Source: a virus (lineage: Duplodnaviria > Caudoviricetes). From it: a DNA stretch of 64,000 nucleotides. Below, piece after piece: positions 9,992-45,729 of this stretch. Positions within the stretch are counted from its first letter, which is position 1. Every line of letters starts with the position of its first letter. The stretch is from IMG/VR virus record IMGVR_UViG_3300031555_001762; one strand, 5' to 3'. Position numbers and translations under genes: made by a program. Below the pieces are notes generated by a model, which made no database searches, had not been told where the DNA came from, and was given only the letters and a program-made list of their open reading frames with translations.

Positions 9992-10023
9992 CTTGCGCAC
10001 ATATTCTTCTGAGAACTTTTCTT

Positions 10024-10052: not shown

Positions 10053-10105
10053 AAAGCTGTAGTAAAGATTAAAACTACATAAAATAAAACCAGAGGTGAA
10101 TAAAC

Positions 10106-11302
10106 ATGGGGAAAGATTTAAAGGGAAAGTCGCTAGGCACAGGGTATTCCCAACGCAAAGATAAACGTTATGAAGCTAGGGCAATGGTTAATGGCGTTAA
10201 AATTTGCCTGTATGACATGCATCTCCCAACACTAAAGAAAAGATTCGAAGAAGAGAAGGCTAAGATTCTAAGACAGGAAAAGAACATCAGGCCTAATCTA
10301 ACATTGGGTGAATGGTTTGAAGAATGGTTTTCCTCATATAAAGAACCAAGCTTAAAATCAGAGGTTTCAAAGAAGGCGTATCACAGAAAAGTGTCTAACA
10401 CTTACATAGCTGCAATAGGCGATAAAAAATTAGAAACAATAACCCATATGAACGTACAGAATACAACAAATGACCTTCTTAATAAATTCAAAGCAAGAAC
10501 AATCAGAGAGGCACTTGGAGTTCTAAGAGAATGTCTTGATATTGCGATGATGAATTCTTTAGTCAAAAGCAACCCATGCACAAATATCAATATAATAAAT
10601 GAAAACGAAGCCGTACAAGAACGTAGGGTTTTAAGTTCTCGTGAAATAGAAATGTTCTTAGAGGAAATCCAATATGAGTATTACAATGAAGCGTATCAAA
10701 TTCTACTGTTAACTGGTATGAGAATAGGAGAGTTCTCAGGTCTCCAATGGCAAGATATTAACTTCCAAACAAAGACGATTAAGATACAACGCAGTCTAAG
10801 CACTGGATATGTTGAGGGTAAGAAAATAGAATACCTAACATCTCCCAAGACAAGTAACAGTTATAGAACAATACCATTCTTCGGGAACGTAGGAGAGCTA
10901 TTCAAATCATGGAAGGTCAAACAAGATGAGCACAAAAAGAAACTTGGCAGCAGATGGAGATGCGGAGAAGAACTTGGGGATTTGGTATTCACCACAACGT
11001 TAGGTTCTCCAGTTACAAGATACGCATTGTCTCATAACATAGAAAAGGTATTAAAGAATATCAACGAAAAAGAGAAATACAATGCAGCTATCGAAGGAAG
11101 GGAACCACAATTGGTTGACCACATTTATCCTCACGCATTCAGACACACGTTTGCTACGAGATGCTTTGAAAAGAAATTAGATCCAGTTGTCATACAAAGA
11201 ATTATGGGTCACGCTGATTATTCGGTCACACTTAAATATACTCATATCTTGGAAACAAGATTGAGCGAAGAGATAGCAAAAGCAGAAGACTTCCTATTAT
11301 AA
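10106..11302 (+). CDS. int: Tyrosine integrase with N-terminal arm-binding domain
   Basis: RKDKRYEAR arm-binding segment; TGMRIGE, PKT, HAFRH, MGH, catalytic Y (LKYTH). Confidence 0.95.
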   Translation: MGKDLKGKSLGTGYSQRKDKRYEARAMVNGVKICLYDMHLPTLKKRFEEEKAKILRQEKNIRPNLTLGEWFEEWFSSYKEPSLKSEVSKKAYHRKVSNTYIAAIGDKKLETITHMNVQNTTNDLLNKFKARTIREALGVLRECLDIAMMNSLVKSNPCTNINIINENEAVQERRVLSSREIEMFLEEIQYEYYNEAYQILLLTGMRIGEFSGLQWQDINFQTKTIKIQRSLSTGYVEGKKIEYLTSPKTSNSYRTIPFFGNVGELFKSWKVKQDEHKKKLGSRWRCGEELGDLVFTTTLGSPVTRYALSHNIEKVLKNINEKEKYNAAIEGREPQLVDHIYPHAFRHTFATRCFEKKLDPVVIQRIMGHADYSVTLKYTHILETRLSEEIAKAEDFLL

Positions 11303-11315
11303 GGGAGTCTTTTTT
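11286..11315 (+). terminator. Rho-independent terminator over the integrase stop
   Basis: AAGACTTCCT-ATTATA-AGGGAGTCTT then T run. Confidence 0.75.
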
Positions 11316-11327
11316 CTGTGTATTAAA

Positions 11328-11665
11328 TTTGCGCATTTGCGTAAAACTATGATTTGCGTAAGCAACTGCGCAAATTTATTTTTTGCGTTTTTTTGCGGTT
11401 TCGTAGCGTTTGCGTAAAAGATTTAAAAGATGCTTGATAACGCCTTATAAATAAGGTAATATGTAAAAGGGCTTAACATATGGAGTTCTAAGAGATAACA
11501 ACAAGTAAGTATTTATAAACCCTTGATACACAAGGGATTGGAAGTAACCAAAATTTGCGTAAAATATACGCAACCTTATATCTAGGTTGTATGGTTTTGC
11601 GTCAAATTTGAGTATGAAAATGCGTAAGCAAACAGATTTATTTCCTTCAGATAAGTTTACGCAAG
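11328..11665. other. Putative attP: two clusters of TTTGCGTAA-like arm sites flanking a repeat-free core region (~11420-11550)
   Basis: About 13 copies of TTTGCG(T/C)AA-like 9-mers in both orientations; exact copies at 11336, 11353, 11409, 11554; directly downstream of int. Confidence 0.75.
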
Positions 11666-11717
11666 ATTAAATAAAGCGGCTGGTATTCAGCTATATAATA
11701 TCAACATAATTTTCGTT

Positions 11718-11751
11718 AAAAGGGGTAGCCAATAAAGGTTATCCCTTTTTT
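11718..11751. terminator. Bidirectional terminator between attP and par locus
   Basis: AAAAGGGGTAGCC-AATAAA-GGTTATCCCTTTTTT. Confidence 0.7.
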
Positions 11752-11771
11752 ATATTGCCAATTGCTTTATT

Positions 11772-11881
11772 TATATTGTTTATATTAATTCTATATAATT
11801 TATATAAAACGCTTGCGCATTATAATCATACATTATATAATTACTATAATATTTTATATAATTTATATAGAATATATAAAA
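11772..11881 (+). promoter_or_regulatory. Putative parC centromere: 9-bp TATATWRWW iterons in two blocks flanking the parMR promoter
   Basis: Iterons at 11772, 11781, 11792, 11801 and 11855, 11864, 11873; promoter TTGCGC(11813)-17 bp-TATAAT(11836) between the blocks. Confidence 0.6.
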
Positions 11882-11906
11882 CATACCCAAAGGGGGATAA
11901 AACAAT

Positions 11907-13004
11907 ATGGCTATTTTTATTGGAGGAGAGAGTGCAAATTCATTTATAAAGATGGTGAGTTCTGTATCTAAGCTTGACGTTGCTGGCAATCCTATCGTAG
12001 ATACATATTTGAACACGCTGACAGAGGTAGATAAGTACGACGCATATGATGATGTCTCAGGCAAACTAAGGCCGCAACATTATGAGGTGGATGGCATCTA
12101 TTATCAAGTTGGATTGAAAGCAGAGACATCAGAGCAAGATAACTCATACTTAGATGGCATTGAAAGATACAAGCATCCTAACTTCAGGATTGAAACGTTG
12201 ATAGCTATTTATCGTCAGCTAGAGAAGGGCAATAAATTTGACGAGCCTATATATTATGTAACTGGCGTTCCTATCAAACACTTCAATAAGACAGTAGAGG
12301 ATACAATAAGAGACGTATTGATTGCAAATAATCACACGGTTAATGGCAAGCCAATCAATATCAAAGAGGTTAAAGTTATTAAGCAAGCATTATCATCTTA
12401 TTACAATGACCTGCTTGACAACAATGCGAAACCCAATGCAGATTTCTATCGTTCTATCAAAGATAAAAATCTTCTGTACTTTGATATAGGCTGGGGAACA
12501 AGCGACGTTCAACGAATCGTTGACAGAAAGCCAATGGGAGACAGTCATTTAGATGGCGTTATAACTATTGTAGACAGAATATACAAAGACGCTATAAGCC
12601 TTGGCACTATTGAAAGTGATAAGCTGAAAGCTCTTGGAGTTCCAAAGCTAGGCTTTCACAACGTAATCAAAACTGGAATCCTTAAATGCTCAAGAGATAT
12701 GGAGCTGGATATGAGAAAATCAAGAGAGAAACACGTTGCATCTTTTCTAAACTCAATATCAAGATTAACCAAGAGCGACTTTGAGCTATCTAATATAGAT
12801 ACTATTTACTTCTGCGGTGGCGGAGCAATAGCATTAGAGAACGATATTAAACAACACTTTAAGGAGTTTTTCGGTTATAATGATATACAGATATCAAAGA
12901 AATTTGTATTCGTATCTGGGGCGCAGCAAAGCAATGCTCGTGGGTACTATAAGTTTGCTTTGAAATATTTCCGAAAAGAAGCAGGAGTTGGAGTTGGTAG
13001 TTAA
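11907..13004 (+). CDS. parM: ParM/StbA-family actin-like partition NTPase
   Basis: VTGVP, phosphate-2 FDIGWGTSD, adenosine FCGGGA, C-terminal SNARGYY; variant phosphate-1 GGESANSFIK. Confidence 0.85.
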   Translation: MAIFIGGESANSFIKMVSSVSKLDVAGNPIVDTYLNTLTEVDKYDAYDDVSGKLRPQHYEVDGIYYQVGLKAETSEQDNSYLDGIERYKHPNFRIETLIAIYRQLEKGNKFDEPIYYVTGVPIKHFNKTVEDTIRDVLIANNHTVNGKPINIKEVKVIKQALSSYYNDLLDNNAKPNADFYRSIKDKNLLYFDIGWGTSDVQRIVDRKPMGDSHLDGVITIVDRIYKDAISLGTIESDKLKALGVPKLGFHNVIKTGILKCSRDMELDMRKSREKHVASFLNSISRLTKSDFELSNIDTIYFCGGGAIALENDIKQHFKEFFGYNDIQISKKFVFVSGAQQSNARGYYKFALKYFRKEAGVGVGS

Positions 13005-13324
13005 TGTCTTACAAAGGTTACTCGTTCAACCTTCATAAAGAAGACGATAAGGAATTAATAGATTGGCTCAGCAACAAGAAGGTCACAAAGACAATTAAGA
13101 TTGCACTATACAATCAAATGAAGTCAGAAAGCAATACTATAGCAGGTGACAATTCCATTGAGCTACTATCTGCCATAAAGAAAGTCATTGAAAGCAATAA
13201 CAATATCAGCGATAAACAACCTGAAATTGCAGAGAGTCAAAAAGTAGCACCAAAGCAAAATGAAGATAAGAAGTCTTTGGACGGCGAAGACGCAGAAGAT
13301 TTCGAGAAGATATTCGATATATAA
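13004..13324 (+). CDS. parR: ParR-like ribbon-helix-helix centromere-binding adaptor
   Basis: TAATG-coupled to parM; YSFNL..EDDKELIDWL...TIKIAL, low-complexity linker, acidic/hydrophobic tail (EDFEKIFDI). Confidence 0.7.
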   Translation: MSYKGYSFNLHKEDDKELIDWLSNKKVTKTIKIALYNQMKSESNTIAGDNSIELLSAIKKVIESNNNISDKQPEIAESQKVAPKQNEDKKSLDGEDAEDFEKIFDI

Positions 13325-13331
13325 AAATCGT

Positions 13332-13370
13332 AAAAAAAAGGGAGTAGCTTAATTGCTACTCCCTAATTAT
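13332..13370. terminator. Bidirectional terminator between the convergent arms
   Basis: A8-GGGAGTAGC-TTAATT-GCTACTCCC. Confidence 0.85.
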
Positions 13371-13437
13371 TTGTTATCTGAAATCAAGATAACTAGTTAT
13401 CTGTTTTATCCATTGAAATTCACATTTCAATGGATGA

Positions 13438-13899
13438 TTAAACACCGATTACATATCTCAAAACGTAATTGTTGTTAGAGAATGTAATTCCGCATTGAGA
13501 CTCTGCTGCCTGACTATTTGCATCATCACCAGTGATGCCAGTGTCAGAGATGTGCAAATGCTTAGCACCAAAAGTCTTCATAGTTGCGTTGATAGTCATC
13601 AAGAATGTATGAGCACCACCGTTGTTTAATTCGACCATAACTTTAGGTACGAAGTGACAGCTCCAAGAATGATCTTGTGCGGTTGGCTCAGTGTCACCTT
13701 CGTTCTGTTCGAAATAAGAGAACACAAGAACAATGCCATGCTCCTGCTCACTTACCTTGCCATCAAATGCAACGGCGCTATCACCATTCATGAACTTTGC
13801 GCCTTCCCACAAAATTTTATTGTTACTATTATATTGGTCTACCATACCTAATAGCTCATCTATTTTCTTTCCTGTGTAGGATGATACATATTCGCTCAT
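13438..13899 (-). CDS. Short fibre-tip protein, paralogous to the N- and C-termini of 19157..21190
   Basis: SSYTGKKIDELL start; NKILWEG...GIVLVFS...YVLRYVIGV. Confidence 0.75.
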   Translation of the reverse strand: MSEYVSSYTGKKIDELLGMVDQYNSNNKILWEGAKFMNGDSAVAFDGKVSEQEHGIVLVFSYFEQNEGDTEPTAQDHSWSCHFVPKVMVELNNGGAHTFLMTINATMKTFGAKHLHISDTGITGDDANSQAAESQCGITFSNNNYVLRYVIGV

Positions 13900-13916
13900 A
13901 TTCACCTGCTTTATCT

Positions 13917-15602
13917 TTAAACTGCCATATACGGAACGCCATCTGAATTGTAGATAGTTACGATTCCGTAATGCAAAACAGAACCATCATTTGTCATAAA
14001 GTAATCATCGTTATTATCTTTAAACATCTCACCATCTGACGTTACAAAGTTTACATTGTTATCCATATAGAAATGAATCATACCTCTTTGTGGAACTCCA
14101 TCTTCTGAGTAGATAGTTACATAAGAACAAAGTAAAACCCACTGTGCATACAAATCAATCTCTACGTCTCCAATGTTAAAACTTTCTAAAATACCCAGCC
14201 TCTCAGCTAGTTCAGCACCAGAATCAAAAGACCCATCTTCAGGAACTACAACAATGCTTTCTATTTCAGGGTCAGATCCAGTACCCCAATATCCAGTTGC
14301 TTCATATCTAGTTCTCTTCATATAAGTGTCATCGTTTACACGAGAATAATTGTTAAGTCCTTCTGGAATTGAAGTAGCATATTTATACTCGCTTGTTCTA
14401 ACTATAACGTCTTTTTTATCTGAAGAAACATCTTTGCTCTCACCATCTACATAAGCATATGTAGCATAGTTGCTCTTATAATGAACAGTAAGAACATGCT
14501 CCCTCCACTGCGCGTATAAAGTAACAATTGCGCCATCATCAGAGGATAGATTCATTACTGGCTCACCATCGTTGTATGAATTGCCAGAGCCATTAGGTTC
14601 CGTGTTCCATCCAGTAAACGTATAACCAGTACGAACAAACGCATTAGAAGTTAAGTTCTTAGCGGTATCATAAGTGTGTGTTTGCGAAGATGTTGTACCA
14701 GTGCCACCGTTAGAATCATAATCAATAGTATACGTATTTGCCTTCCAAACGGCATAGAGAACATCGCTACTGCTAAGAGTTATGCTTCCTCCAGAGCTAT
14801 ATGATGAACTAGTTGCACTAGACGAAGTTGACCATCCTAAGAACGTATATCCTGTACGAGTTGGTTCTGTAGAGGATATTGTGAATTTATGCGATGTTGT
14901 AGCGTTATATATGGTTGCTGACTGTTTTGAAGGAGCGCCAGAACCTTTGTTGGCATCATATGATAATTCAATAATTTTCTTCCATATAGCAAACAGTTCA
15001 TCGCCAGCATTCGAAGTATAACTTCCTCCAGCCGCATAATCCACAGATGTATCACTTGCAGAAGTTCCCCACCCTTCAAACGTATATCCGCTTCTAGTAG
15101 GACTTGCACTAGAAAGAGTCAATGTAACTCCATGAGTTTTTGTTTGAGTAGAAGGTACACTGCCAAGACTACCGCCATTTGCGTTATATGTTACAGTATA
15201 AGTTTTTCTTGCTATACCATCTATGCTTCCGCTACCACTACCAGATATGGTTCCATAATATGTTCCAGATAATGTAACAGCCATCTCTTGACTATATGAA
15301 TATGAAAAACTTTTAGCAGAACCCCATGAATCATGGTAAATAGTAGTAGAACCAGTTGCTAATGTAGGAGATGCACCAGTTGAAGCAGATGGGTTGTTTG
15401 TTCCGCTATATTTTTGACCATTAACGGTTACAGACCAATCTCTGTCGTTGCAATTAATACTTCCATATCCATCATTAACCAGCTTAAGAGTCCAGCTAAT
15501 AACAGAGTAGTTTTCCGTATTAGAATAACTGCTTCTGCTCCATGAAAATTGTAAGTCCCAATTTTTATTAATGTCTACGCTAGAACTTCCACTTGTAGCC
15601 AC
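13917..15602 (-). CDS. Virion protein with InlB B-repeats (Listeria-Bacteroides repeats)
   Basis: MATSG..W N-terminal domain typical of siphovirus minor tail proteins; three Y(N/D)xNGG...R.GYTF.GW...LYA.W repeats plus a degenerate fourth. Confidence 0.85.
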   Translation of the reverse strand: MATSGSSSVDINKNWDLQFSWSRSSYSNTENYSVISWTLKLVNDGYGSINCNDRDWSVTVNGQKYSGTNNPSASTGASPTLATGSTTIYHDSWGSAKSFSYSYSQEMAVTLSGTYYGTISGSGSGSIDGIARKTYTVTYNANGGSLGSVPSTQTKTHGVTLTLSSASPTRSGYTFEGWGTSASDTSVDYAAGGSYTSNAGDELFAIWKKIIELSYDANKGSGAPSKQSATIYNATTSHKFTISSTEPTRTGYTFLGWSTSSSATSSSYSSGGSITLSSSDVLYAVWKANTYTIDYDSNGGTGTTSSQTHTYDTAKNLTSNAFVRTGYTFTGWNTEPNGSGNSYNDGEPVMNLSSDDGAIVTLYAQWREHVLTVHYKSNYATYAYVDGESKDVSSDKKDVIVRTSEYKYATSIPEGLNNYSRVNDDTYMKRTRYEATGYWGTGSDPEIESIVVVPEDGSFDSGAELAERLGILESFNIGDVEIDLYAQWVLLCSYVTIYSEDGVPQRGMIHFYMDNNVNFVTSDGEMFKDNNDDYFMTNDGSVLHYGIVTIYNSDGVPYMAV

Positions 15603-15633
15603 AGATACTCACCTCCTTCTTCTATATGTATTT

Positions 15634-15912
15634 TTAATTTATCTGAATGTAAATAGTGTTTCTCTTCAATACATCACCATTTTCAATCTTGCTCCAATAT
15701 GTCTCGGCATCTTCCATACCCCAATGAATACCAAGATTGTGCAAGGCTTCGACCGCACTATTGGCACCAGTACCGCCATTTTCTACTGGTATAATACCAT
15801 TAACAATATCTTCAGCAGAATGAGTGTGACCAATATCTGCTTTCGTAGTTCTTGCAACTTCATCGCAAATTTCATAACCCATAAGAGTTTTCATAATAGG
15901 CATATCCGACAT
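15634..15912 (-). CDS. Short fibre adaptor protein
   Basis: LMGYEICDEVAR, GHTH, IIPVENGGTGA..A..AL.NLG fibre motifs. Confidence 0.7.
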   Translation of the reverse strand: MSDMPIMKTLMGYEICDEVARTTKADIGHTHSAEDIVNGIIPVENGGTGANSAVEALHNLGIHWGMEDAETYWSKIENGDVLKRNTIYIQIN

Positions 15913-16355
15913 TATTCAGCCACCTCCTTGTCAAACACTATATCTGCATTCCCATTGCCATCATCAATTATCTTCATAACGTATCCGTTATCTACAATCA
16001 TTTGTCTTATGTTGTATTCTATTTCAGCTATAGTATCTTCCGCTATAGCGTCTGTATCATCATTAATTCCAACTATATCTTCATATGTTTTCTCGGCGTA
16101 TTCAATACTGTCATTGCCAAACGAACAAAGATCAACCTTTTTATCCTCAATATAAGACAAGGCATCATCTTTGATTGCGGTTACTTGAATAATCGCATCA
16201 GCTCTGATTTCCTCTATGGAGTCCAGCGATTTTTGTTCGATTTGCTTTACATTATCAATAGTGCCAACTCTAATTTCTTCAATGTCATCTCGAATTTCTT
16301 GTTCGATTGTTTGCTCTGTAAGACGCTCAATAGTTTCGACATAGTAGCTTGTCAT
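15912..16355 (-). CDS. Acidic coiled-coil fibre/adaptor protein
   Basis: 11-residue periodic helix; resembles the C-terminal half of 16372..17241; ends DDGNGNADI. Confidence 0.7.
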   Translation of the reverse strand: MTSYYVETIERLTEQTIEQEIRDDIEEIRVGTIDNVKQIEQKSLDSIEEIRADAIIQVTAIKDDALSYIEDKKVDLCSFGNDSIEYAEKTYEDIVGINDDTDAIAEDTIAEIEYNIRQMIVDNGYVMKIIDDGNGNADIVFDKEVAE

Positions 16356-16371
16356 AATCAAACCACCTTTC

Positions 16372-17241
16372 CTATGATTCTATTGGCTGATTTAGCAAAA
16401 TTACGATATCAACATTGCCTTCGCCGTCATCTGTTGGCTGAACAGACAAACCGTTTTTATTCATTGTAGTATTGATGCTATCTTCGATTTGAGCCTGAGT
16501 TGTGTCGGCAATTTCAACAGTTTCATTATATTCAGTCAATGAATCGTTTTTGATTTTATCAAGTTCTGCTATGATATCATTTCCGATGTTGATAAATCCG
16601 CCTGTATAAGTATCATCACCAACTGTTACAGACCCTTCGTTATAAGATGCATCCATTTGGTTATCAACTTCTTCAATGGCGGCATCTGTGGTGTCTGTGA
16701 TATCATCTATCGCATTTTCTTTAGTCGTATTAACGCTATTAATTGACGTATCCTTTGTATCATTAATATCATCTATTGTCTGTTGACGAGTTTCTTTTAC
16801 GACTTCCTCAATCTCTCCTTTGATCATCTCAGCTGTGATACGATCAATGTTTTCAACATAGAGATAATCGCTTGGCTTATGTCTTTTTCTGACGGGAATT
16901 TCATTGTGCAAGATAGTCCTTTGAGAAGATGTATCTTTTGAATCTGTCATATAAACATATACCTGCAAAGGACATGCATCTTGCAGCAAGGTGTTGGGAA
17001 TTTGAACTTTGATTGAAGTATCGTCATTCTTTTCAGAACGAACAACTAATGCTTCTTCTCTTGCCTTATTAGAAAAATGAACTTCTGGCAATGCATAAGA
17101 AGGAGAAGAGGGAAGTTCTGTTTCTGGTAAGTTGCAACTATCTATAGGGATAACAAGACTTTGATCGATATCCCATTGTGTAAGGTTGTTAATTGTATTC
17201 CCATAGGAATCAAAGCATTGTATTTCGTACATATAAGACAC
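16372..17241 (-). CDS. BppU-like baseplate-anchor domain plus coiled coil
   Basis: LTQWDIDQ.L...EVHFSN...IPNTLLQ...IPV.KR.KPSDY; ends DDGEGNVDI. Confidence 0.65.
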   Translation of the reverse strand: MSYMYEIQCFDSYGNTINNLTQWDIDQSLVIPIDSCNLPETELPSSPSYALPEVHFSNKAREEALVVRSEKNDDTSIKVQIPNTLLQDACPLQVYVYMTDSKDTSSQRTILHNEIPVRKRHKPSDYLYVENIDRITAEMIKGEIEEVVKETRQQTIDDINDTKDTSINSVNTTKENAIDDITDTTDAAIEEVDNQMDASYNEGSVTVGDDTYTGGFINIGNDIIAELDKIKNDSLTEYNETVEIADTTQAQIEDSINTTMNKNGLSVQPTDDGEGNVDIVILLNQPIES

Positions 17242-17286
17242 CTCCTAAGTCTTGTTAATTGTATTCAAATTAATAATAGTAAATAT

Positions 17287-17319
17287 AAAAGGCGCGTGCA
17301 TATAAAACACGCGCCTTTT
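17287..17319. terminator. Terminator hairpin
   Basis: AAAAGGCGCGTG-9 nt-CACGCGCCTTTT. Confidence 0.8.
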
Positions 17320-17348
17320 AAAATAACATTTTCAATGTCTATCATATA

Positions 17349-18026
17349 TTAAATAATGCCATAAATAGATTTAATGGATTCATCTGTCTCAACGTTGTAC
17401 TCACCATTTGCCGCGCAGTTACCGCACATAACCATTGTCAAAACGTTGCCGCTTCTATTAGCATTAAGCGATTGAACCCACATATTCGGAGTAGTATTTG
17501 CATATCCACCAAAGCAACGGAATACGCCATCGGTAGGCAAACTAAAGCCTATCATTGGAGTAGAGCTTCCGCTAAGATATACGCAAAATAAAACATAATC
17601 AGACAAGCCGCCAACTGTAATGCTTCCAGTTGCCCATGTACCTTCCCAAAGCAGCTTCCCAATTTTCTTAGATGTAATTACCTCATTAATGCCACCGTCT
17701 TTATCTATGAAGTTCAAAGATTCATTTGTTGCCATCATAGTCAAGCTTATGGAATTTCCGTTTTTATCAAAATCGCGAAGTACAGTTCCGTAATCCGCAG
17801 TATCAGAATTGTTTTTGAATAATTGAGAATAGCCGTTATCATACGGTTTCAAATCAAGTGCGCCAGTAAGCGTACCACCAGTTTTATCAAGTTTAGAATC
17901 TAGTTCGGAATTAAAAGACTCAATATCAGCGCGTGCTTGCTCTAGTTCGGAATTAAAAGACTCTATCTGAGAACGTGCGTACTCATCTGTAATCTCATAG
18001 CCGTTAAGACTTTTTAATTTAGGCAT
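17349..18026 (-). CDS. Tail fibre / receptor-binding protein
   Basis: LNGYEITDEYAR, KLDKTGGTLTGAL, LLWEG...I.SIYGII. Confidence 0.75.
   Translation of the reverse strand: MPKLKSLNGYEITDEYARSQIESFNSELEQARADIESFNSELDSKLDKTGGTLTGALDLKPYDNGYSQLFKNNSDTADYGTVLRDFDKNGNSISLTMMATNESLNFIDKDGGINEVITSKKIGKLLWEGTWATGSITVGGLSDYVLFCVYLSGSSTPMIGFSLPTDGVFRCFGGYANTTPNMWVQSLNANRSGNVLTMVMCGNCAANGEYNVETDESIKSIYGII
17899..17963. repeat. 23-bp exact direct repeat, 42-bp period (14 aa)
   Basis: TCTAGTTCGGAATTAAAAGACTC at 17899 and 17941; IESFNSEL twice. Confidence 0.9.
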
Positions 18027-18128
18027 AAGACATCCTCCTAACTTATTTTAAGTTATCATAAAACAGAAACAAACATCAAAAGATGCTTGAAGTTATATTT
18101 GCAATATTATATTTACTACAATTTAACA

Positions 18129-18614
18129 TTATTTTGTATATTCTAGAATTAAACAACCTCTTGAGATAGTAGCATCAGAACCACACCTTACAAGAAGATC
18201 GCCGTTGTCCTGCATCAGAATGTCTCTAAATCCTGTCGTTCCGCTTGTTGAGGAAAACGGAACTGGAACCATGCGTCCCTTAACATCGTATGTGACACAC
18301 TCAACCCTCACGATGTTTACACTCAAGAGACCGCTGGCAACTGTGACAGACGAACCAGCTGCAACTACACCAATTTCGTATACCTTGCGATATATTGCCG
18401 AACCATCAATCCATGTTTGACCAGTGTTTGTTTCACTAGTTGAGAACCTTGATACTGCTTTTAACTCGGCAATCTCATCTGCGACATCATAAACAGTACC
18501 ATTACCAGATTTATCATTTACAGTAAGCAAACCATTGACATCTAAGCTACCCTCAATATCTCCACCAGTAACAGGGAGAAAGACTTCATTTAAACTAACA
18601 AATTCTGTACTCAT
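18129..18614 (-). CDS. Tail fibre tip protein
   Basis: LPVTGG.I.G.L; STSET.TG.TWIDG..IYRK...LEYTK motif common in phage fibres. Confidence 0.75.
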   Translation of the reverse strand: MSTEFVSLNEVFLPVTGGDIEGSLDVNGLLTVNDKSGNGTVYDVADEIAELKAVSRFSTSETNTGQTWIDGSAIYRKVYEIGVVAAGSSVTVASGLLSVNIVRVECVTYDVKGRMVPVPFSSTSGTTGFRDILMQDNGDLLVRCGSDATISRGCLILEYTK

Positions 18615-18824
18615 TATAAATTCCTCCTTTAAACATTCATATTTCCATACATTGCTTTTCTATGTAAAAAAGCAATCATTATAATAAAATGACTGCTCAG
18701 TGTTTTCTTCTTTATAAGTAGAAAGTTCACACCGCTTGAAATCACAGCTTCAATGTGTAAACCGATACTTCAAGCGGTGCGAATCATTTCATGTTTTATT
18801 TAGTTTTTGTTTTAACTTTACAAA

Positions 18825-19142
18825 CTAGCAATCTTCTGCATCTGCAAACTCAGGACGATTCTTCTTAAGAAGTCCGTAAGCGCACTGCATAGTATCGCCG
18901 TTCATATCCTCAATGCTGTCAGCATAGCTCATATAAACGTACTCGTGTGCAACGTAGGGGAAGGTAGGCTCGCCTTCAATCTTGCCAGCAGCATAATCCT
19001 TCTCATACTGACGAGCTTCCTCATTAAGATAGCTGTGACGCAGAATGGTAATCTGCTGATTTGGTTCAATGCTCACAAGAGCGACCCTATGATATTCTAG
19101 AGGAAGACCATTGGGCATAACGATTTTCTTTTTCAATGCCAT
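18825..19142 (-). CDS. Small tail-fibre-associated protein (possible assembly chaperone)
   Basis: MALKK.I...NG....YHR...Y..LK...PEFADAEDC; directly after the collar gene. Confidence 0.6.
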   Translation of the reverse strand: MALKKKIVMPNGLPLEYHRVALVSIEPNQQITILRHSYLNEEARQYEKDYAAGKIEGEPTFPYVAHEYVYMSYADSIEDMNGDTMQCAYGLLKKNRPEFADAEDC

Positions 19143-19156
19143 ATTATTTACACTCC

Positions 19157-21190
19157 TTAATATCCGATAACGTATCGCAGTACAAAATAGCTGTTAGTAT
19201 AGTTAATACCCGCATAGGAATCTGCGCCGCTATCATTATTTGTATCGGCACCAGTGATAGAAGTATCGCTTACATACAAATACTTATATGCCGCTACGCC
19301 AAAATTATTAGCTGCCAAATGAATACTCATACCAGTACCATTATGTGCCTCAACATGATACTTGGGTACTTGCGTAAATTCCCAATAGTAATTTTTTGCA
19401 GCACCATCAGAATAAGCACTCCATACCAGAATAACGCCATTTGGTTGTGAACTGATTGCCTCTGAAAGTGTAATTGTCTGCGTCTCATTCATACCGTGAC
19501 CACCGCTCCACAGAACCTTATTCACACCATATTCACGACCATCGACAGTAAGAGTTCCACTAACTTCCAAATCATTTTCAACAGTAGCATTGTTGAAATG
19601 ACCTACAGCCACTCCGCCTGATGTGGGAGAGTCTTTCCAAAAACCCCTTGCTTGGATATGGGCTTCAACCTGCTCGCTTCCTGTTGCAGACGTAGCGAAG
19701 AAGAGCCTCACCCAGTCTTTTGTAGCCTCAGCTCTTGCATCGATAGCATAGCCAGAACCAATGTAACCTGCATAGGAAACACTCGGAACGTCAATGAACT
19801 CTATCGGGAACTCCCACATGGGTGTATAACGGAAGGGCATGTTGTTCCATGTCGAATACGGTTCGTTGTTCTCTTCGAACAATACAGCCCAGCATTCAGC
19901 CTTGCCGCTTGCCCATTTCTCCCAATACCAACCGTCTGTTTGACCCCACTCAACCACGTAGTCCGCAGGGTTGATACCGTAAACAGCACCAGATGCAGTA
20001 CCGCCAGAAGTAACTCCGCCTTCACCAGTGGAAATGAAGTAACGCATTACAACGTAAGGTTGCATGTTGTTGTGGGATTCTCCTTCGCCCGTAAATGAAT
20101 ACTTCTTTGCGTCACCAGCGTTTACGGAGTCTACGGTTAAGTAGCTGTAATCGCCTGAAACGTTCGTAACGTTTGCCCCCGTTGAATCAACGATAGCATT
20201 TGCTCCCCAAACAGTACGAACAGTAAAGCTTGCGTAATCTTCGGGCATCTCATCAACCGTCAACGTATGCTTTTCCTCGCCACCAGTCTCACCAAGAGCA
20301 TATCCATCAGACTCACCGATAATCACACGGCTTTCAAGATTAGGCACGTTGAAGGTAGTAGAGCCATCGCCAGAACCATAAGTCGTTCCAATAGCATCGA
20401 ACAGCTTTGCGTACTCAGTTCTAGAATACTCGGAGCCGTCGCAAAGAAGGAAGCCTTCTGGGTCTCCTTCGCCAGCGAAGGGGTAGACCATACCTGCAAC
20501 AGCAGAGGACTGGACAGTGGTTTCGCTAATAGTCATTGGACGAGCATCTGCGCTCTTGCCAGTAGAGATAATGTAGTTAACCACTGTGTAAGGTTGCATG
20601 TTGTTGTGCGGTTGGTCTCCGCCGAACTCGGCTTTAAGAATAGTGCTGCCGCCTTGTGCACTGCCGTAGCCAAGCATATCGTAACCAGTGCTGCCGCCAG
20701 ACTCAGATTTCAAAATTCCATCGGGTGAAAGGAACGTTGATCCTTGAGAATCGCCGCCCCAAGTCCAATTTCTAAACCACGCTCTACCACTTAGTTTAGG
20801 TAACTCGCCCTCGATTAACTTATGCTCTTCCTCGCCACCAACTTCACCAAGCTCATAATCAACACCAGCGCCCACTGGTACGCGAGTCTGAAGGTCTGGA
20901 ACGTTGAACGTTGTAGCCCCATCGCCTTCACCATATGTAGTGCCGATAGCCTCGAACAGTTCGGCATATTCGTCACGTGAATAAGCTTCGCCATCGCACA
21001 TCAAGAATCCCTCTGGGACGGTTTCTCCTGCAAAGGGATATACGATGCCAGCGATAGGAGAGCCTTCAGGGCTAGAAGGGAGGGAGTCTAATGCTCCCTC
21101 CAAATCTGCTACTTTAGCAGACAATGTTTTAGCAGTGCCAAGAATACTGTTCACCTCTTGACCTGTATATGATAATTTATAAGTTCCCAT
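19157..21190 (-). CDS. Tail fibre protein with two tandem tail-collar domains
   Basis: Two G.VYPFAG...PEGFL.CDG..YSR.EY..LF.AIGTTYG.GDG.TTFNVP.L...HNNMQPY units, then W.KW.SGKAECW domain and a C-terminal domain. Confidence 0.9.
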   Translation of the reverse strand: MGTYKLSYTGQEVNSILGTAKTLSAKVADLEGALDSLPSSPEGSPIAGIVYPFAGETVPEGFLMCDGEAYSRDEYAELFEAIGTTYGEGDGATTFNVPDLQTRVPVGAGVDYELGEVGGEEEHKLIEGELPKLSGRAWFRNWTWGGDSQGSTFLSPDGILKSESGGSTGYDMLGYGSAQGGSTILKAEFGGDQPHNNMQPYTVVNYIISTGKSADARPMTISETTVQSSAVAGMVYPFAGEGDPEGFLLCDGSEYSRTEYAKLFDAIGTTYGSGDGSTTFNVPNLESRVIIGESDGYALGETGGEEKHTLTVDEMPEDYASFTVRTVWGANAIVDSTGANVTNVSGDYSYLTVDSVNAGDAKKYSFTGEGESHNNMQPYVVMRYFISTGEGGVTSGGTASGAVYGINPADYVVEWGQTDGWYWEKWASGKAECWAVLFEENNEPYSTWNNMPFRYTPMWEFPIEFIDVPSVSYAGYIGSGYAIDARAEATKDWVRLFFATSATGSEQVEAHIQARGFWKDSPTSGGVAVGHFNNATVENDLEVSGTLTVDGREYGVNKVLWSGGHGMNETQTITLSEAISSQPNGVILVWSAYSDGAAKNYYWEFTQVPKYHVEAHNGTGMSIHLAANNFGVAAYKYLYVSDTSITGADTNNDSGADSYAGINYTNSYFVLRYVIGY

Positions 21191-21193
21191 TTT

Positions 21194-22663
21194 CTAAACA
21201 CCTCTTACAACTATATAGTCATCTTGGGAGTCTAACAGCTCTAAGCCATCAAGAGTCTCCAACTGCTTATCTTCATAAACGCTTCCGTTATTGTCGAATA
21301 GACCCTTTGGAAGTCTGACATAAATATCCTTAATGTTTCTGCCTTCAGGAACTCTTACGAAAACCTCGTACTCTCTAGTCCATACAGCATATAGAGTAAT
21401 GACATCGCCGTTTACAAAATCATCATTTACGTATGTGCCGCCAGAAAGATAAACAGCTTTCGTTGCAGAGCTATCCAAAGCCCAGCCAGAGAACGAATAT
21501 TTATCCCTTGTTGGTTTTACGGTAGATAGTATGGATACCGATTCTGCTTCATGCAGCTGACTTTCTGGAGCATTCATACCGCCATTAGCGTCATATGCAA
21601 TAGAGCACACTACAACCAGAGACCATATCGCATAAAGAACTGTATCCGCATTGCCAGTGAATGAACCACCAGCAGAATACGAAGCAGCTGTAGAACTTGC
21701 GCTGGCTCCCCATCCGATGAACTCATATCCTTCTCTTGTCGGAATGGTAGGGGAGAGTGTTATGTTTACTCCGTATGTTTTCGTCTGAGAACTTGGAGCG
21801 CCAGAACCACCGTTTGCATCAAATGAGATAGTATATACCTCAGCTTCCCAAATCGCATATAAGGTAACGGCAGCATTTGATGTATATGTAGCACCAGCAG
21901 CATATGCTACGCTACCAGTAGAAGAGGTAGCCCATCCTTTGAATATATGACCAGCACATGTAGGTATGGTAGAGGAGAGGGTTAGATCTGTTCCATGCGT
22001 TTTAGTTTGGCTACTAGGCGCACCACTACCGCCATTGGCGTTGTAAGATACTGTGTAGGTATTCAATTTCCAAACAGCATATAATGTAGCACCTGAGTTA
22101 GAAGTGTAGCTTCCACCAGCAGAATATGTCGCTGAAGTTGCAGTAGAAGATGTTGACCATCCTAAGAATGTATATCCAGTACGAGTTGGTTTAGTGCTGG
22201 AAAGGGCTAGGGTTTTATCACGGTATTTCGTTTGGCTGCTTGGAGCACCAGAACCACCGTTAGCATTATATGAAACAGTCCAGTATAATGTTGGGACTGT
22301 GTAAGAGCCACTAACTTCAGAAGAAACATAAGAACCAGAACTTCTAGTATATCCACCTTTAGCATAGAGAGACAATGTTTGTCCCTGACTGTACCACCCT
22401 GCATTAATCCAACTATCGTCAGCATACCATCCAGTTGAATCAAGAGAGACCGAGCCAGACCAGTTGGTACTGCCGTTAGTAGTGCCTGTGTAAGCAACAG
22501 TAGTGCCATTGAAATCGCCTGTGCTTACGTAAAGAGCATGTCCGTATTCAAGGCGATATGCTGTATCAGAAGTCTCTGCAATTCTAATACCTACCCAAGC
22601 TTTAAACTTCGAATTGGTACTGCCAGCTTCGCTACCATAATTATAAACTACGTTAGTTGCCAA
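21194..22663 (-). CDS. Virion protein with four InlB B-repeats
   Basis: Repeats YNANGGSGAPSSQTK...PTR.GY.F.GW...TLYA.W; TTG start after AGGAGG. Confidence 0.88.
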   Translation of the reverse strand: MATNVVYNYGSEAGSTNSKFKAWVGIRIAETSDTAYRLEYGHALYVSTGDFNGTTVAYTGTTNGSTNWSGSVSLDSTGWYADDSWINAGWYSQGQTLSLYAKGGYTRSSGSYVSSEVSGSYTVPTLYWTVSYNANGGSGAPSSQTKYRDKTLALSSTKPTRTGYTFLGWSTSSTATSATYSAGGSYTSNSGATLYAVWKLNTYTVSYNANGGSGAPSSQTKTHGTDLTLSSTIPTCAGHIFKGWATSSTGSVAYAAGATYTSNAAVTLYAIWEAEVYTISFDANGGSGAPSSQTKTYGVNITLSPTIPTREGYEFIGWGASASSTAASYSAGGSFTGNADTVLYAIWSLVVVCSIAYDANGGMNAPESQLHEAESVSILSTVKPTRDKYSFSGWALDSSATKAVYLSGGTYVNDDFVNGDVITLYAVWTREYEVFVRVPEGRNIKDIYVRLPKGLFDNNGSVYEDKQLETLDGLELLDSQDDYIVVRGV

Positions 22664-22716: not shown

Positions 22717-23946
22717 TTATAATTCATTATTTCTGAAATGAATATCGACAGTTTTTCTCCATACCGCATACAGCGTAACAATATCACTATCAACAAAGTC
22801 ATCGTTTACGTACTTACAACCAGAAAGATACGTTGCCTTTCTTGCATTTGCAATAATAGACCACCCAGAGAAATGATATCCTTTTCTTTCTGGTTTTACG
22901 CTAGACAAAGTTGAAACGCTGCCCCTCATGTGGGATTGATTGCTTATATCGCATTCGCCTCCATTTGCGTCATACATGAGAGTACAAGATTCAACGCGAA
23001 CCCATACAGCATACAAAGTCGTATTCTTCGTAACGTTGAGATTCCAAGAAGTGCCAGACTTATAAGTAGGAGACGTTGCCGAAGAGGATTCATCCCAACC
23101 TAAGAACTCATAACCAGTTCTTGTAGGAATTGAAGTCGATAGAGCAACAGTTCCACTACTTGCATAAGTGTATGTTTGAGCATTCGGAGCATTGCTGCCG
23201 CCGTTAGCATCATATGTAATGGTATAAGTGTTTACTTGCCATACGGCATAGAGAGTATAATCAGAAGCGTTACTTAAATTCCAATTCTGACCAGCCGTAT
23301 ATGATGCGCTAGTAGCGTCTGAGGAAAGAGACCAGCCTAAGAAAGTGTAACCAGTTCTAGTGGGATTTGTGCTTGATAGCTTTGTAGTGCCACTGCTTGC
23401 ATAAGTATAGCTATGGCTGCTCGGAGCGCCAGAGCCACCGTTGGCATCGTAAGAAATTGTATACGTATTAGCAGTCCATTGAGCATAAAGGGTTACAGCA
23501 GAGTTTGATGTATAGTTTCCGCCAGAAGAATATGATGTTCCAGTGCCGCCAGAGTTAGTGTTCCAATTCTTAAACGTATAACCAGTGCGAGTAGGCGTGG
23601 AAGTTGTGAGCTTCAATGTCGTTCCATATGTTTTAGTCTGGTTTGATGGAGCACCAGAACCACCGTTTGCATTATACGAAACTGTATAAGTTGCATTTGG
23701 GAACGAAGCCGCTGTATAATACCTACCATCAGCAGAACCTTTTGTAACGCCAACGTGGTATGGATATGTTACAGTCCAAGTGGCTGAATATGCACCATAG
23801 AAATAATGGTCGTTTCTAGATGTCGTAGAAGCACCACTGCCATCAGCACTAGATGCGTGTTTTGCACTGGAGCTGATAGTTAATGTAACATAATCGCCCC
23901 TGTTATAAGTTTTGCCCTTAATAGTAGCAGAAGTTGACCAACCCAT
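22717..23946 (-). CDS. Virion protein with N-terminal SH3-like segment and four InlB B-repeats
   Basis: Same repeat signature; last repeat closely matches that of 21194..22663 (YLSG..YVNDDFV). Confidence 0.88.
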   Translation of the reverse strand: MGWSTSATIKGKTYNRGDYVTLTISSSAKHASSADGSGASTTSRNDHYFYGAYSATWTVTYPYHVGVTKGSADGRYYTAASFPNATYTVSYNANGGSGAPSNQTKTYGTTLKLTTSTPTRTGYTFKNWNTNSGGTGTSYSSGGNYTSNSAVTLYAQWTANTYTISYDANGGSGAPSSHSYTYASSGTTKLSSTNPTRTGYTFLGWSLSSDATSASYTAGQNWNLSNASDYTLYAVWQVNTYTITYDANGGSNAPNAQTYTYASSGTVALSTSIPTRTGYEFLGWDESSSATSPTYKSGTSWNLNVTKNTTLYAVWVRVESCTLMYDANGGECDISNQSHMRGSVSTLSSVKPERKGYHFSGWSIIANARKATYLSGCKYVNDDFVDSDIVTLYAVWRKTVDIHFRNNEL

Positions 23947-41982: not shown

Positions 41983-44900
41983 CTATGTAAGACCCAGTAA
42001 ATTTTTCAAGCTTTCTATGGTTATTGTAGTCACGCTACCATCATTATCAATATATAACAGTTTACCCGCATTATTGATGCTACCAGTCAAATCGGTATAC
42101 CTCCCACTAGTAGCAACCGTAGCAAGAGATGGTTTATCTGATAGCTCATCGTAACTACCAGAAAATAAAGTTGGTTTATTGGTCAAATCATTATAGTTTC
42201 CAGAGAACAAATTTGGCTTGTTGTTAAGCTCATTATAATTACCAGAAGTCGCAACAGAATGAAAGTCTGGTTTATCGTCCAATTGATTATAACTGCCAGA
42301 GGTTGCAATTGGATGCAGGTTCGTGATAACACCAGAGTCAATTTCTACACCCGTACCTAATTCCAAACTTCGAGCCATAATGTTGCCGTTAATAGTAAGA
42401 CCCTTTTCATTAACTTCGAAAACTTCTTCGCCGCTATACACGATGTTCATGATTTCACTTGTACTCGGATCAATCCTGACGTAATTATCTTCGCCATGTT
42501 CCACTCTAAAGCCGTTTTCATTGAACATCATTGTACCAATATTACTGCCACTTCCGCTAGTGATACTTAAACCACCGCCATCAAACTTCATGTTTCCAGA
42601 TTCATTTTGAATGCTCAAGTTTTCACCGAGAATAAACTTGCCGATAATGGTCTCGCCGTTTACACCGTAAGCCATCCTCATTTCACCAGTCTCAGGATCG
42701 ACATAATAATACTTGCCAACAGCAGTCTTAGTGGTCTTCCAATTATCCGTGGTAATAGCCATAGTTGAGTTGATAATCTTCATCTGCTCTGGCGAGTAAT
42801 CTCCAGTTGCGTCATCGTACTCTCTGAACAACATTCCGTGATTATCCCAAGTCTGACATTGACCATCGGCACCGCCAACAATCTTCACGTTGGTAGCATC
42901 GAGTCCAGAATCAAACCAGCTAGACACAACAGCATTACTTTCCTCGCCCTGCTTCGCTTGTCTTTGAACAGCGGGGTAGGAGGTAGCAATAGAAGAAGCT
43001 TGTGCCAATACATCCTTTACGCTTTTGATACTACTATTAGACCTGACAACATCTGAGAACTCAACTGAAATGCTATCTAAGCTGTCATAGTCTATGGTGT
43101 AACTGATAAGTCTTAGCTTATAAACTCTATCATCAACCATAACCCTCAACCAGTTACCAACCCTAAAGTTATTAACCAATGGTTTAAACTTCTCGATTAC
43201 TAACAGATTTTTAAGGCTTGCTGAAATAGAACACTGAAGCTCAGCTGACTTATAGATTTCCTTCTTTGCCGTTTCGATAAACTCATTTGCAAGAGTGATA
43301 ATTTCCGCATTATTCTTACCTTCTGATATGTAATTGTCATTAGAGTATTTATCTTCTCGTCTAAACGAACAGAACTCAAGCCATAATTTTTCTCCAAGGA
43401 ATTTCTCAAAATCAAGTTCTCCCTGAATTTCAGCCTTGATTTTCTCGATAACAGTCTGCAATCCATCTTCGACCACATTTCCATCTGCATCGTATACTCC
43501 AGAAATTATAGACATCTCATTGCTTCTAATATTCATTTCTTCTTGAATGGCGCTTAGCTTTTTAGCATAATCAGCATACAACATAGTATACAAATCTAAA
43601 GTGTAATCTATATCACTACTGCCGCAGTTTTCACACGTGTTTACAGAGTCTCCTATATAATCACACTCTGGACAATTCAATATGAACTCTTTATCATATC
43701 CGCAATTTGGACATGCGCTTACTATTTTCGTACTAAGCTCTTCATTTTCACTACAATGGATGCATATTCTTTTATCGCCCCATGTTTCCCTGTTAGACAC
43801 ACCCTGTTCAACAAGCAACTCAATACAAGACTGACAAGCATCATGAAAAGATTCCAATCTTTTAAGACTGTATTCCTTTAGCGCATACTGAAAGCTTTCT
43901 TCCGTTTTTGCGCCAATCATAAAATTGTTTCCATCTGAATCCTTGAACAAATCGCCATTGGACGTAACGAAGTTAGCTGCCAGTTCTTTTTCAAACAAAC
44001 TAGAAACGCTTAAATCTTCTGTGTCATCAGCAGAAAGACTTTTATCAAGCTTGTTCTTTACAAATGTTTCATAATCATCGTTGACAATAATTTGTATACT
44101 ATCAGTAGTGCCAGTTATTTCATCATCTGAATATGCAGTTAAAGTTATCTTGCCAGTCCAAACTCTTTCTGATGAGCCTTCGACATAATCCGACAATGTT
44201 GACCCGTCTTCAATTTTTACTTTATATCTAGAATCAACAATGGTTTTTGCCATTGACAGCACAATATTGTCAGCAGTTGATACCGAAGTCGCTTTTAATG
44301 GATTGCTTGAAGTAGATGTAACGTTTACTGCAACGGGTGAGAGATTGTCTGTTGTAAGCTTATTAATCTCTTCTTCTACGATTGGTCTAGCCGTGTTAAC
44401 AGTTGGCATCAATCCACTTTCTAAATACAGATACATATCAAACATATTGTAATAGGCATCTATTAAAGCTGGAAATCCTTTGACTGGATTCTCTATTTTT
44501 TCGAACTTGTCATCATCATCAATCTTCATGAAGTTGTTGTATTTATCAACAAGATCGTTATATTTTTTAACAAGAGCTTCGTCTAGCTGTATGAAATCAG
44601 ACTGATAATCTTTATATAAAATATCATACGCCTCAATAGCCGAAACAAGTTTATCAGACATATCCGCCTTCATTTCATTGCTCAGATACCATATATAATC
44701 GCTGCCATTTGGATTGCAATTCCTAATGGTTGCAGTCATGAGATCGTCGCCAGCTTCAAGTTTGAAGCAGTTCTTCATTGCATCTGTGTCTGTTGTAAGC
44801 TGAATATCATCCGCTATTTCATCGGCAGTAACGAAGATGGTTGTATCTTCGCCATAGCCATCGTCTATGCTATATATGATTTCGTTTCCGTCTTTGTCCT

Positions 44901-45729
44901 TGCCAATGCCTTTGCATTCAGGACACACATCAGAGAACTCTCCACGATAACCGCAATCAGGATTTAGACATCTAGATTCCAAGTCATACACAGAAATGGT
45001 TCTCTGAATACCTCCGTTCTCGTCAGAGCATGAATCAAATACAAATAAACAATTAAGCTCCTCTGCAATCTCTTGACACGCATCGTATATAGAAATTCCA
45101 TCAAACGTAAACTCTCTTTGCATATATCGAAGATTTGTATCAACATGCCCAACAGAATAATGAGGAGCTTTATCCTTTAAAATACGATGTAGGAGAGATG
45201 CTTCTTCGTAGCCTTCAAATGGAAGCTTCATATCTTCCTTTTTAACCTCATTATAAAACTTAACATCGCTTTCAGTTATTCCTTCTCCGAGAACTCCATT
45301 TTCTCTGTATAGAACAGTAGGAATAACATAATCATCTCTTTCAATATCTGCTTCGGTGTTGATTTCAATATTGTAAAGCATAATTTGAGACAACTCTGCT
45401 TGTCCTAGCCTAGTGCAGAACACTGTTTTTACAGTTTCATTCGACTCGTCAATTTCGACAGTACATTCAAACCAACAATTCCATTCAACACAATATACAA
45501 GCTTGAAGTTAGTAATCAAATCCCATAGGCTATCTTTTTCTCCATCAATCTCCTTATGAACATTGAATGTTATTTCAGAAGCATCACTCATGTTATCAGA
45601 TACTTCAATAGCCTTCGCATTTATCTTACCAAGCTTGTCTCCATTCTTCTTTGCCAGTATTAAAGTGGGTTCTTCTGGATTATAAGTAACATCGAAATTA
45701 ATCTTTATAGCATTTGATACTTTATTCAT
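41983..45729 (-). CDS. Baseplate hub / tail spike (Tal-like) with Zn-ribbon insertions and C-terminal SGxYxxLxxKP repeats
   Basis: Position after TMP and Dit; VGNWLRV..D....KLRLI.Y.IDY motif; five terminal repeats. Confidence 0.75.
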   Translation of the reverse strand: MNKVSNAIKINFDVTYNPEEPTLILAKKNGDKLGKINAKAIEVSDNMSDASEITFNVHKEIDGEKDSLWDLITNFKLVYCVEWNCWFECTVEIDESNETVKTVFCTRLGQAELSQIMLYNIEINTEADIERDDYVIPTVLYRENGVLGEGITESDVKFYNEVKKEDMKLPFEGYEEASLLHRILKDKAPHYSVGHVDTNLRYMQREFTFDGISIYDACQEIAEELNCLFVFDSCSDENGGIQRTISVYDLESRCLNPDCGYRGEFSDVCPECKGIGKDKDGNEIIYSIDDGYGEDTTIFVTADEIADDIQLTTDTDAMKNCFKLEAGDDLMTATIRNCNPNGSDYIWYLSNEMKADMSDKLVSAIEAYDILYKDYQSDFIQLDEALVKKYNDLVDKYNNFMKIDDDDKFEKIENPVKGFPALIDAYYNMFDMYLYLESGLMPTVNTARPIVEEEINKLTTDNLSPVAVNVTSTSSNPLKATSVSTADNIVLSMAKTIVDSRYKVKIEDGSTLSDYVEGSSERVWTGKITLTAYSDDEITGTTDSIQIIVNDDYETFVKNKLDKSLSADDTEDLSVSSLFEKELAANFVTSNGDLFKDSDGNNFMIGAKTEESFQYALKEYSLKRLESFHDACQSCIELLVEQGVSNRETWGDKRICIHCSENEELSTKIVSACPNCGYDKEFILNCPECDYIGDSVNTCENCGSSDIDYTLDLYTMLYADYAKKLSAIQEEMNIRSNEMSIISGVYDADGNVVEDGLQTVIEKIKAEIQGELDFEKFLGEKLWLEFCSFRREDKYSNDNYISEGKNNAEIITLANEFIETAKKEIYKSAELQCSISASLKNLLVIEKFKPLVNNFRVGNWLRVMVDDRVYKLRLISYTIDYDSLDSISVEFSDVVRSNSSIKSVKDVLAQASSIATSYPAVQRQAKQGEESNAVVSSWFDSGLDATNVKIVGGADGQCQTWDNHGMLFREYDDATGDYSPEQMKIINSTMAITTDNWKTTKTAVGKYYYVDPETGEMRMAYGVNGETIIGKFILGENLSIQNESGNMKFDGGGLSITSGSGSNIGTMMFNENGFRVEHGEDNYVRIDPSTSEIMNIVYSGEEVFEVNEKGLTINGNIMARSLELGTGVEIDSGVITNLHPIATSGSYNQLDDKPDFHSVATSGNYNELNNKPNLFSGNYNDLTNKPTLFSGSYDELSDKPSLATVATSGRYTDLTGSINNAGKLLYIDNDGSVTTITIESLKNLLGLT

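Follow-up and report, generated by a model that had tools for sequence, protein, structure and literature searches.

Among phages that carry two receptor-binding proteins (RBPs), the podophages KP32, K11 and KP34 of Klebsiella encode the secondary RBP directly after the primary one (PMC6872550, PMC13352976); this secondary RBP starts with a conserved peptide of ~29 amino acids (aa), which is needed for its incorporation and which can be fused to foreign heads (PMC13352976). The long tail fibre of T4 is specified by consecutive genes, whose products (gp34-gp35-gp36-gp37) form segments joined end to end non-covalently, and the T2-type gp38 adhesin is encoded by a small gene directly behind the fibre gene, its product binding to the C-terminal tip of gp37 (PMC3004832, PMC3157838). 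In the BppU-BppL baseplate of the lactococcal phage TP901-1 (PDB 4V96) the N-terminal stem of the trimeric RBP plugs into the C-terminal part of its carrier, within a branched device mounted on the Dit/Tal hub. Here a comparable junction is described from the DNA of a tailed virus (Duplodnaviria; Caudoviricetes; IMG/VR record IMGVR_UViG_3300031555_001762), of which the entire 64,000-nucleotide (nt) stretch analysed is termed the window. The junction consists of a short peptide in the C-terminal region of a fibre protein (the carrier), followed closely by a gene whose product (the head) opens with an N-terminus of ~20 residues, termed here the YTG handle; a further copy of the peptide lies inside the protein that occupies the position of Tal. 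On balance we favour the interpretation, suggested by the sequences, that peptide and handle are two halves of a non-covalent connector and pair with each other directly.

Profiles for both motifs were built from collected examples and were run locally on the six-frame translation of the window. The peptide profile detects exactly three copies (expectation values (E) of 8e-9, 7e-7 and 1e-5; next match >5) and the handle profile exactly two handles (E 1e-16 and 1e-12; next match 11); these are the three peptides and two YTG N-termini that an earlier note, made by reading the sequence alone, had reported, and both the open reading frames (ORFs) of the window and the profile searches place them where that note did. 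When the residues of the 54 main ORFs were shuffled 2000 times, the strict form of the peptide pattern, which occurs twice, was expected 0.0 times and the loose form, which occurs three times, 0.085 times; the observed count was reached in none of the shuffles. The peptide is built on a strict eight-residue period (hydrophobic, x, T/D, S, D/N, G, x, x) whose copy number varies. Peptide 1 had been said to end the 561-aa carrier, which holds for the C-terminal region but not for the very end: it is flanked by two 'TIY-x-x-DG' hairpin units, and the stop codon follows only after 24 further residues, which form two more, degenerate hairpin units. The C-terminal 82 aa of this carrier recur in two database relatives only, with 70-73% conservation. 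Several fibre proteins also have C-ends with tandemly repeated hairpin units of 12-13 residues, 'T-x-Y-D/S-x-x-G' (window 13917-13994 on the minus strand; L103:6267-7142 in a database stretch), and peptide 1 resembles an insert between two of them.

Both head genes of the window open with the consensus M-x-x-Y-x-x-S-Y-T-G-x-x-V/I-D/N-x-L/I-L and lie immediately behind their carriers, the gaps being 17 nt (from the 561-aa carrier to the 153-aa head) and 3 nt (from the 489-aa carrier to the 677-aa head). The latter head starts in the same frame in which its carrier stops; the former starts with an ATG at 13899 that has a Shine-Dalgarno site 5 nt upstream; and the ribosome-binding sites of both fall in, or just past, the end of the upstream gene. 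The 677-aa head contains two copies of the collar domain PF07484 (151.8 bits, above the Pfam threshold), and the Flg_new repeats of the 561-, 489- and 409-aa proteins score 124 to 178 bits against a Pfam cut-off of 27.

Compared with the described systems, the YTG handle is like the N-terminal peptide of the KP32-type secondary RBP in position, size and modular behaviour, which is an analogy only, without sequence similarity. There, however, a folded branching domain like that of T4 gp10 receives the peptide, whereas the candidate site here is linear, a hairpin peptide of ~20 aa located C-terminally or within a loop of the Tal-position protein. No gp10-like domain was found by Pfam in the 561- and 489-aa carriers, only Flg_new repeats, and a sub-threshold Gp10_C match (26.9 bits versus the cut-off of 27) is in the 677-aa head rather than in a carrier. 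Moreover, KP32-type phages infect Klebsiella, whereas the large siphovirus-type phage described here has Gram-positive gut bacteria as hosts, prophage-like relatives indicating Clostridia or Lachnospiraceae. Like the genes of the T4 fibre joints, the carrier and head genes are consecutive and co-oriented (here 1-17 nt apart, with fused forms in other phages), and their products may join end to end; there is no homology, however, and the T4 joints are neither described as a short, portable motif pair nor inserted into a hub protein. TP901-1, like this phage, is a siphophage of Gram-positive bacteria in which the N-terminus of an RBP enters the C-terminal part of a carrier (here as a proposal); unlike BppU, the carriers in the window lack a BppU-type N-terminus, which other tip-bearing proteins possess. 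The sole sequence link to TP901-1 is a Klebsiella phage protein, Menlow gp046, that weakly resembles the BppL stem (E 0.07-0.2). By analogy, then, the junction system resembles the KP32, T4/T2 and TP901-1 systems in function and is a member of none of them.

The handle behaves, as far as sequences can tell, as a portable attachment module on exchangeable heads, which partly supports the interpretation given in the earlier note. A profile restricted to the handle matches 53 database proteins, whose bodies behind these shared ~20 residues are of at least six unrelated kinds: the tip domain; a combination of collar and tip domains; an H-type lectin domain (119 aa); two further small domains; and proteins of 258-269 aa. 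The heads with collar and tip domains (termed type B) range from 585 to 871 aa and are identical over their first 30 residues, while scans of viral contigs also revealed tiny proteins of 44-57 aa that comprise little beyond the handle. The first, narrow handle alignment had yielded two loci, and wider alignments then yielded new handle types; a handle scan of GTDB genomes gave no confirmed match. The tip domain itself (~125 aa) occurs in 1463 representative proteins, almost always at the C-terminus and behind many different N-termini. Because some database proteins (P0160, P0210, P0228 and others) carry Flg_new repeats and the tip domain within a single chain, carrier and head in the window look like a split fibre that is broken at the peptide and handle; no protein with peptide and handle fused in one chain was found, the fused fibres joining straight to the tip domain.

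Two observations concern the range of the handle. In the clade of genome G003 an H-type lectin domain (PF09458) sits on a YTG handle that has an extra N-terminal extension of 11 residues (L083:1240-1599; P0283-P0319). Menlow gp046 (L173:3501-4826; a homologue of Vi01_174), which is annotated as an Ackermannviridae tail protein, begins with a clear YTG-type handle, and about 44 Klebsiella phage records match the handle weakly (E 0.2-0.5); the handle may be spread well beyond the phages of gut Firmicutes.

Evidence for the proposed pairing comes from the recurrence of the junction, defined here as a carrier with a DG-hairpin peptide in its C-terminal 45 aa and, 1-17 nt downstream, a YTG gene. 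When the upstream gene was inspected for ten independent YTG types, the junction was present in six, that is, in six independent protein contexts (A to F in the table), two of which (D and E) have carriers in the Tal position; the succession of peptide and YTG gene noticed in the window is thus a recurrent one. As a background, 9 of the 836 other ORFs of the window and all loci (~1%) contain the loose motif within their C-terminal 50 residues. The carriers of context E end in a sequence closely like peptide 2, and that of context F in one closely like the peptide of the Tal-position protein. The reverse also applies: Flg_new paralogues without the peptide, namely the 409-aa protein of the window and a 462-aa protein of stretch L152, have no YTG gene behind them.

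Table. Features of the window (positions count from its first letter) and the contexts in which the peptide-handle junction occurs (L numbers are database stretches; GC, guanine-plus-cytosine content)
Feature	Position or occurrence	Strand	Evidence or remark
153-aa head: YTG handle (~residues 1-21, 13837-13899) fused directly to tip domain (~residues 25-153)	13438..13899	-	Handle E 1e-16
561-aa carrier: N-terminal fibre-type domain, three Flg_new (Listeria-Bacteroides) repeats, C-terminal hairpin-repeat region	13917..15602	-	PF09479 E 2.3e-36
Peptide 1, class F-x-T-x-D-G-x-x-F-x-D-x5-F, inside 561-aa carrier	13995..14051	-	Profile match
105-aa gene	18825..19142	-	phrog_5084; follows YTG head genes here, in L152 (12394-12711) and in L133 (1424-1741)
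677-aa head: YTG handle (21128-21190), phage tail collar domain in two copies, tip domain as in 153-aa head	19157..21190	-	PF07484 E 4.7e-45; PHROG tail families; tip phrog_7389
489-aa carrier: four Flg_new repeats, peptide 2 on C-terminal extension	21194..22663	-	PF09479 E 5.2e-53
Peptide 2, class L-x-T-x-D-G-x-x-L-L-D-x-x-D-x-x-I-V-V, four residues from stop of 489-aa carrier	21206..21265	-	Profile match
409-aa Flg_new protein without peptide	22717..23946	-	Next gene without handle; internal negative control
1248-aa Tal-position minor tail protein	41983..45729	-	Directly after Dit; phrog_6211 minor tail protein, E 2.9e-28
Peptide 3, insert of ~20-27 aa behind conserved 'LF-K-K-D/E-L-A'	43912..43974 (motif 43918-43974)	-	Tal residues 586-606 (motif 586-604)
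Dit	45742-46560	-	PF20195 and PF20753
Tape measure gene	47059-56103	-	PF10145
Junction context A: 561 type	Window, L102, L103, L137; L134 with tandem double copy		
Junction context B: 489 type	Window, L152		
Junction context C: 345-aa Flg_new protein	L102		
Junction context D: 1131-aa PF06605 tail protein	L136		Small unrelated siphophage
Junction context E: 712-775-aa proteins, Tal position (by gene order only)	L155, L160		GC 55-60%; then 57-aa handle protein
Junction context F: 85-aa protein	L161, L170		GC 33%; then 44-aa handle protein

If peptide and handle do pair, the connector might be assembled as follows. The carrier (either of two Flg_new-repeat fibre proteins in the window, a Tal-position protein in other phages) would end in, or bear within a loop, one to several hairpin units with a DG turn and an eight-residue period, and the head would be supplied by the next gene, which is translationally coupled to that of the carrier. 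In the handle, of ~20 residues, Y-x-L-x-Y is envisaged as a short strand, T-G as a turn and x-x-V/I-D-x-L-L as the first part of a helix. Its strand could add to the hairpin of the carrier and start a trimeric stem, by which an exchangeable distal head (a tip domain, collar plus tip domains, an H-type lectin domain or others) would be mounted on the carrier.

The third copy of the peptide differs from the others in lying inside a protein. The earlier note had called it a near copy within the Tal-like protein; it is indeed present there, but it shares only 11 of 19 residues with the copy in the 561-aa carrier (17 of 19 are similar). At the DNA level these two peptides are 65% identical, and of the ten non-Met codons that specify the same residue in both, six are synonymous variants; because most synonymous sites are changed, the likeness has been kept at the level of the protein. 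A recent gene conversion or DNA copy between the Tal and fibre peptides is ruled out by this DNA identity.

The Tal-position protein has 1801 database homologues; no Pfam hub domain was found in it. An alignment of the homologues identifies the peptide as an insertion rather than as part of the core fold, since it is absent from ~170 of the 185 aligned; this is the outcome that the earlier note had required of its idea. Eleven carry the insert (among them P0003, P0005, P0006, P0008, P0009, P0016 and P0023), ten of them cleanly and one (P0014) in a longer, Cys-rich form; in another (P0018) this site is occupied by a long insert of a different kind; the remaining ones have either nothing there or a much shorter or unrelated stretch. 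MT835469.1, the sole deposited phage record that is a relative, shows a gap of 27 residues where the peptide lies. An AlphaFold2 (AF2) model of residues 441-760, computed from a 74-row alignment, has a mean predicted local distance difference test score (pLDDT) of 87, and the peptide appears in it as short paired strands with a pLDDT of 83-85; the insert is thus modelled as a small beta-hairpin added to a confidently predicted scaffold. A Foldseek search of PDB with this model returned no match.

That the insert serves as an extra, working landing site for heads is, on the sequences, a possibility that falls only a little short of even. It is made plausible by contexts D and E, in which Tal-position proteins bear the peptide at their C-end before a handle gene. 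Co-occurrence of the insert with YTG genes was checked in two related genomes. The window has three peptide sites and two handle genes, and the relative that encodes the homologue P0003 (stretches L102 and L152) has four peptide sites (three C-ends and Tal) and four handle genes, one of which lacks an upstream carrier. Scans of IMG/VR detected no match with the single Tal protein and, with the Tal alignment, 77 loci, none with an insert at this site (site A); likewise, none of 26 Tal loci in GTDB genomes has an insert. Among 55 IMG/VR genomes whose Tal homologues lack the site-A insert, none has a type-A or type-B head, and 13 have other handle types. These counts of sites and handle genes agree with the idea of a landing site on Tal, though they stem from few independent lineages. 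The head that would most likely dock there is the 153-aa tip protein, because the peptide of the 561-aa carrier is the closest match to the insert.

Two other insertions were seen in the Tal-position protein. At a second site (site B, at about residue 232 in the window, ~45030) some homologues (P0043, P0062-P0064, P0072, P0074, P0077, P0081 and P0098; stretches L022, with Tal at 9995-13501, and L059) have an acidic peptide of ~28 aa with an eight-residue period (L-x-D-S units), like peptide 2. In the two complete genomes with this insert, G001 and G043, the tape measure gene and Dit flank the only YTG gene; in L105 the insert is present and no YTG gene lies within 10 kb of Tal. The other insertion, at about residues 654-706 (window 43612-43770, minus strand), is Cys-rich and zinc-ribbon-like, with four C-x-x-C-type pairs, and is found in a few homologues only (P0001-3, P0006, P0014 and P0027).

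A number of observations weigh against direct pairing. Four of the ten YTG types lack an upstream peptide. These are the H-lectin heads of the G003 clade, where the upstream Flg_new carrier stops at the point at which the extension begins in the window; the G001 type, found after the tape measure gene and ahead of Dit; a 266-269-aa 'A-Y-G-G' type, which follows a type-A head gene; and the YTG gene of L133. The gene upstream of Menlow gp046 lacks the peptide as well. The tandem peptide that precedes a single head gene in L134 suits a structural repeat as well as it suits a tag, and some small, unrelated phage proteins have the core F-x-T-S-D-G-x-x-F-K-D as well, at their N-end; a degenerate DNA pattern of the core matched, in IMG/VR, only two unrelated small proteins. 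The joint occurrence of Tal insert and YTG genes rests on two related genomes. An AF2 prediction in which the C-end of the 489-aa carrier and the N-end of the 677-aa head were read through as a single chain, with the stop codon as glycine, was uninformative (mean pLDDT 39.9), and PDB sequence searches with the heads and the handle profile yielded nothing relevant, that is, no solved structure with either motif. As to the small proteins that share the core, those at L100:706-738 and L101:7644-7676 are phage proteins of 86-98 aa that open with an F-E-T-S/T-D-G-x-x-F-K-D-E hairpin followed by a helix and that occur as tandem paralogues.

Handles without a peptide, in four types and in the Ackermannviridae, are what would be expected if the handle were an N-terminus for attachment in general, with its binding site elsewhere on the carrier or on the baseplate. 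The peptide would then be the terminal, eight-residue-periodic beta unit of the carrier (a cap or trimeriser), the junction would be inherited as a cassette, and the Tal insert would be a decorative hairpin. The strict period and variable copy number of the peptide fit such a role, as do the generic character of its core, a DG hairpin, and the existence of similar hairpin repeats with no YTG gene behind them (for example, in a 291-aa protein of L103). We nevertheless consider this explanation unlikely, given that six unrelated carriers have the peptide at the extreme C-end right before a YTG gene, against a background of ~1%, and that the C-terminal extension is present exactly before the YTG genes for tip and collar heads and absent from paralogues without such a gene.

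Chaperones of fibre assembly are usually encoded directly downstream of the fibre gene, as are Tfa of lambda, Mu and P2 and gp38 of T4. The YTG genes occupy this very place, and the tiny YTG proteins are barely more than a handle, so that YTG proteins, chiefly those of 44-57 aa, might be assembly chaperones or caps that read the C-terminal peptide of the fibre during folding rather than permanent heads. This is improbable: the YTG proteins of the window bear collar domains and the tip domain in which ~1460 fibre-type proteins end, others bear an H-type lectin domain, all of these being binding heads, and the separate, conserved 105-aa gene behind the heads is a better candidate for a chaperone. 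Its product may assist in assembly of the tip domain.

Finally, it is very improbable that the junction is merely a recombination linker, a stretch of DNA homology for swapping head cassettes without any protein contact, for although shuffling affects the N-terminal domains and the distal bodies on either side of a conserved junction (the 489-aa carrier of the window and its 498-aa orthologue in L152 are ~90% identical over the last 350 aa and the junction, with the N-terminal domain swapped) and although type-B heads of such different lengths share identical first residues, the peptide classes have a residue pattern rather than a nucleotide sequence in common, the Tal and 561 copies have diverged at most synonymous sites, the junction recurs across GC contents from 33% to 60%, long conserved nucleotide stretches at the junctions across lineages are absent here, and the insert within Tal is left without an account.

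Should peptide and handle bind each other, they would constitute a minimal peptide-to-peptide connector for mounting receptor-binding heads, far smaller than the folded branching domains of Klebsiella and Ackermannviridae phages, and one whose peptide evidently fits either C-terminally or within a loop. It would then be possible to see which head sits on which carrier in large uncultured gut phages, whose fibre modules are very complex, and to explain how heads are exchanged without the carrier being rebuilt. A rule would also follow, namely that a carrier peptide plus a YTG handle makes a complex. More tentatively, gut siphophages might possess a set of orthogonal connectors of this short-peptide kind; in the present class, a hairpin of ~20 residues would be a sufficient and transplantable pad for any protein with a YTG handle, and its insertion into a surface loop of the hub might add a docking site and so give a branched adsorption device with heads at several sites.

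The tail module in which these genes lie is on the minus strand of the window and belongs to a large uncultured phage of the siphovirus type. Its genes run from the tape measure gene through Dit, the Tal-position protein, the lysis genes and a 2461-aa protein to the fibre genes, which form a long row reaching down to 13438. Within this row, a 92-aa protein (15634-15912, minus strand) has a fused counterpart in L102 (8106-9956), where its sequence is joined C-terminally to a 616-aa Flg_new protein; the two make a split/fused pair. A search for near-identical DNA gave no match of the region to cultured phages. The relatives of the window are gut metagenome contigs of 110-210 kb; others are contigs binned with metagenome-assembled genomes of Clostridia, Lachnospiraceae and Bacilli.

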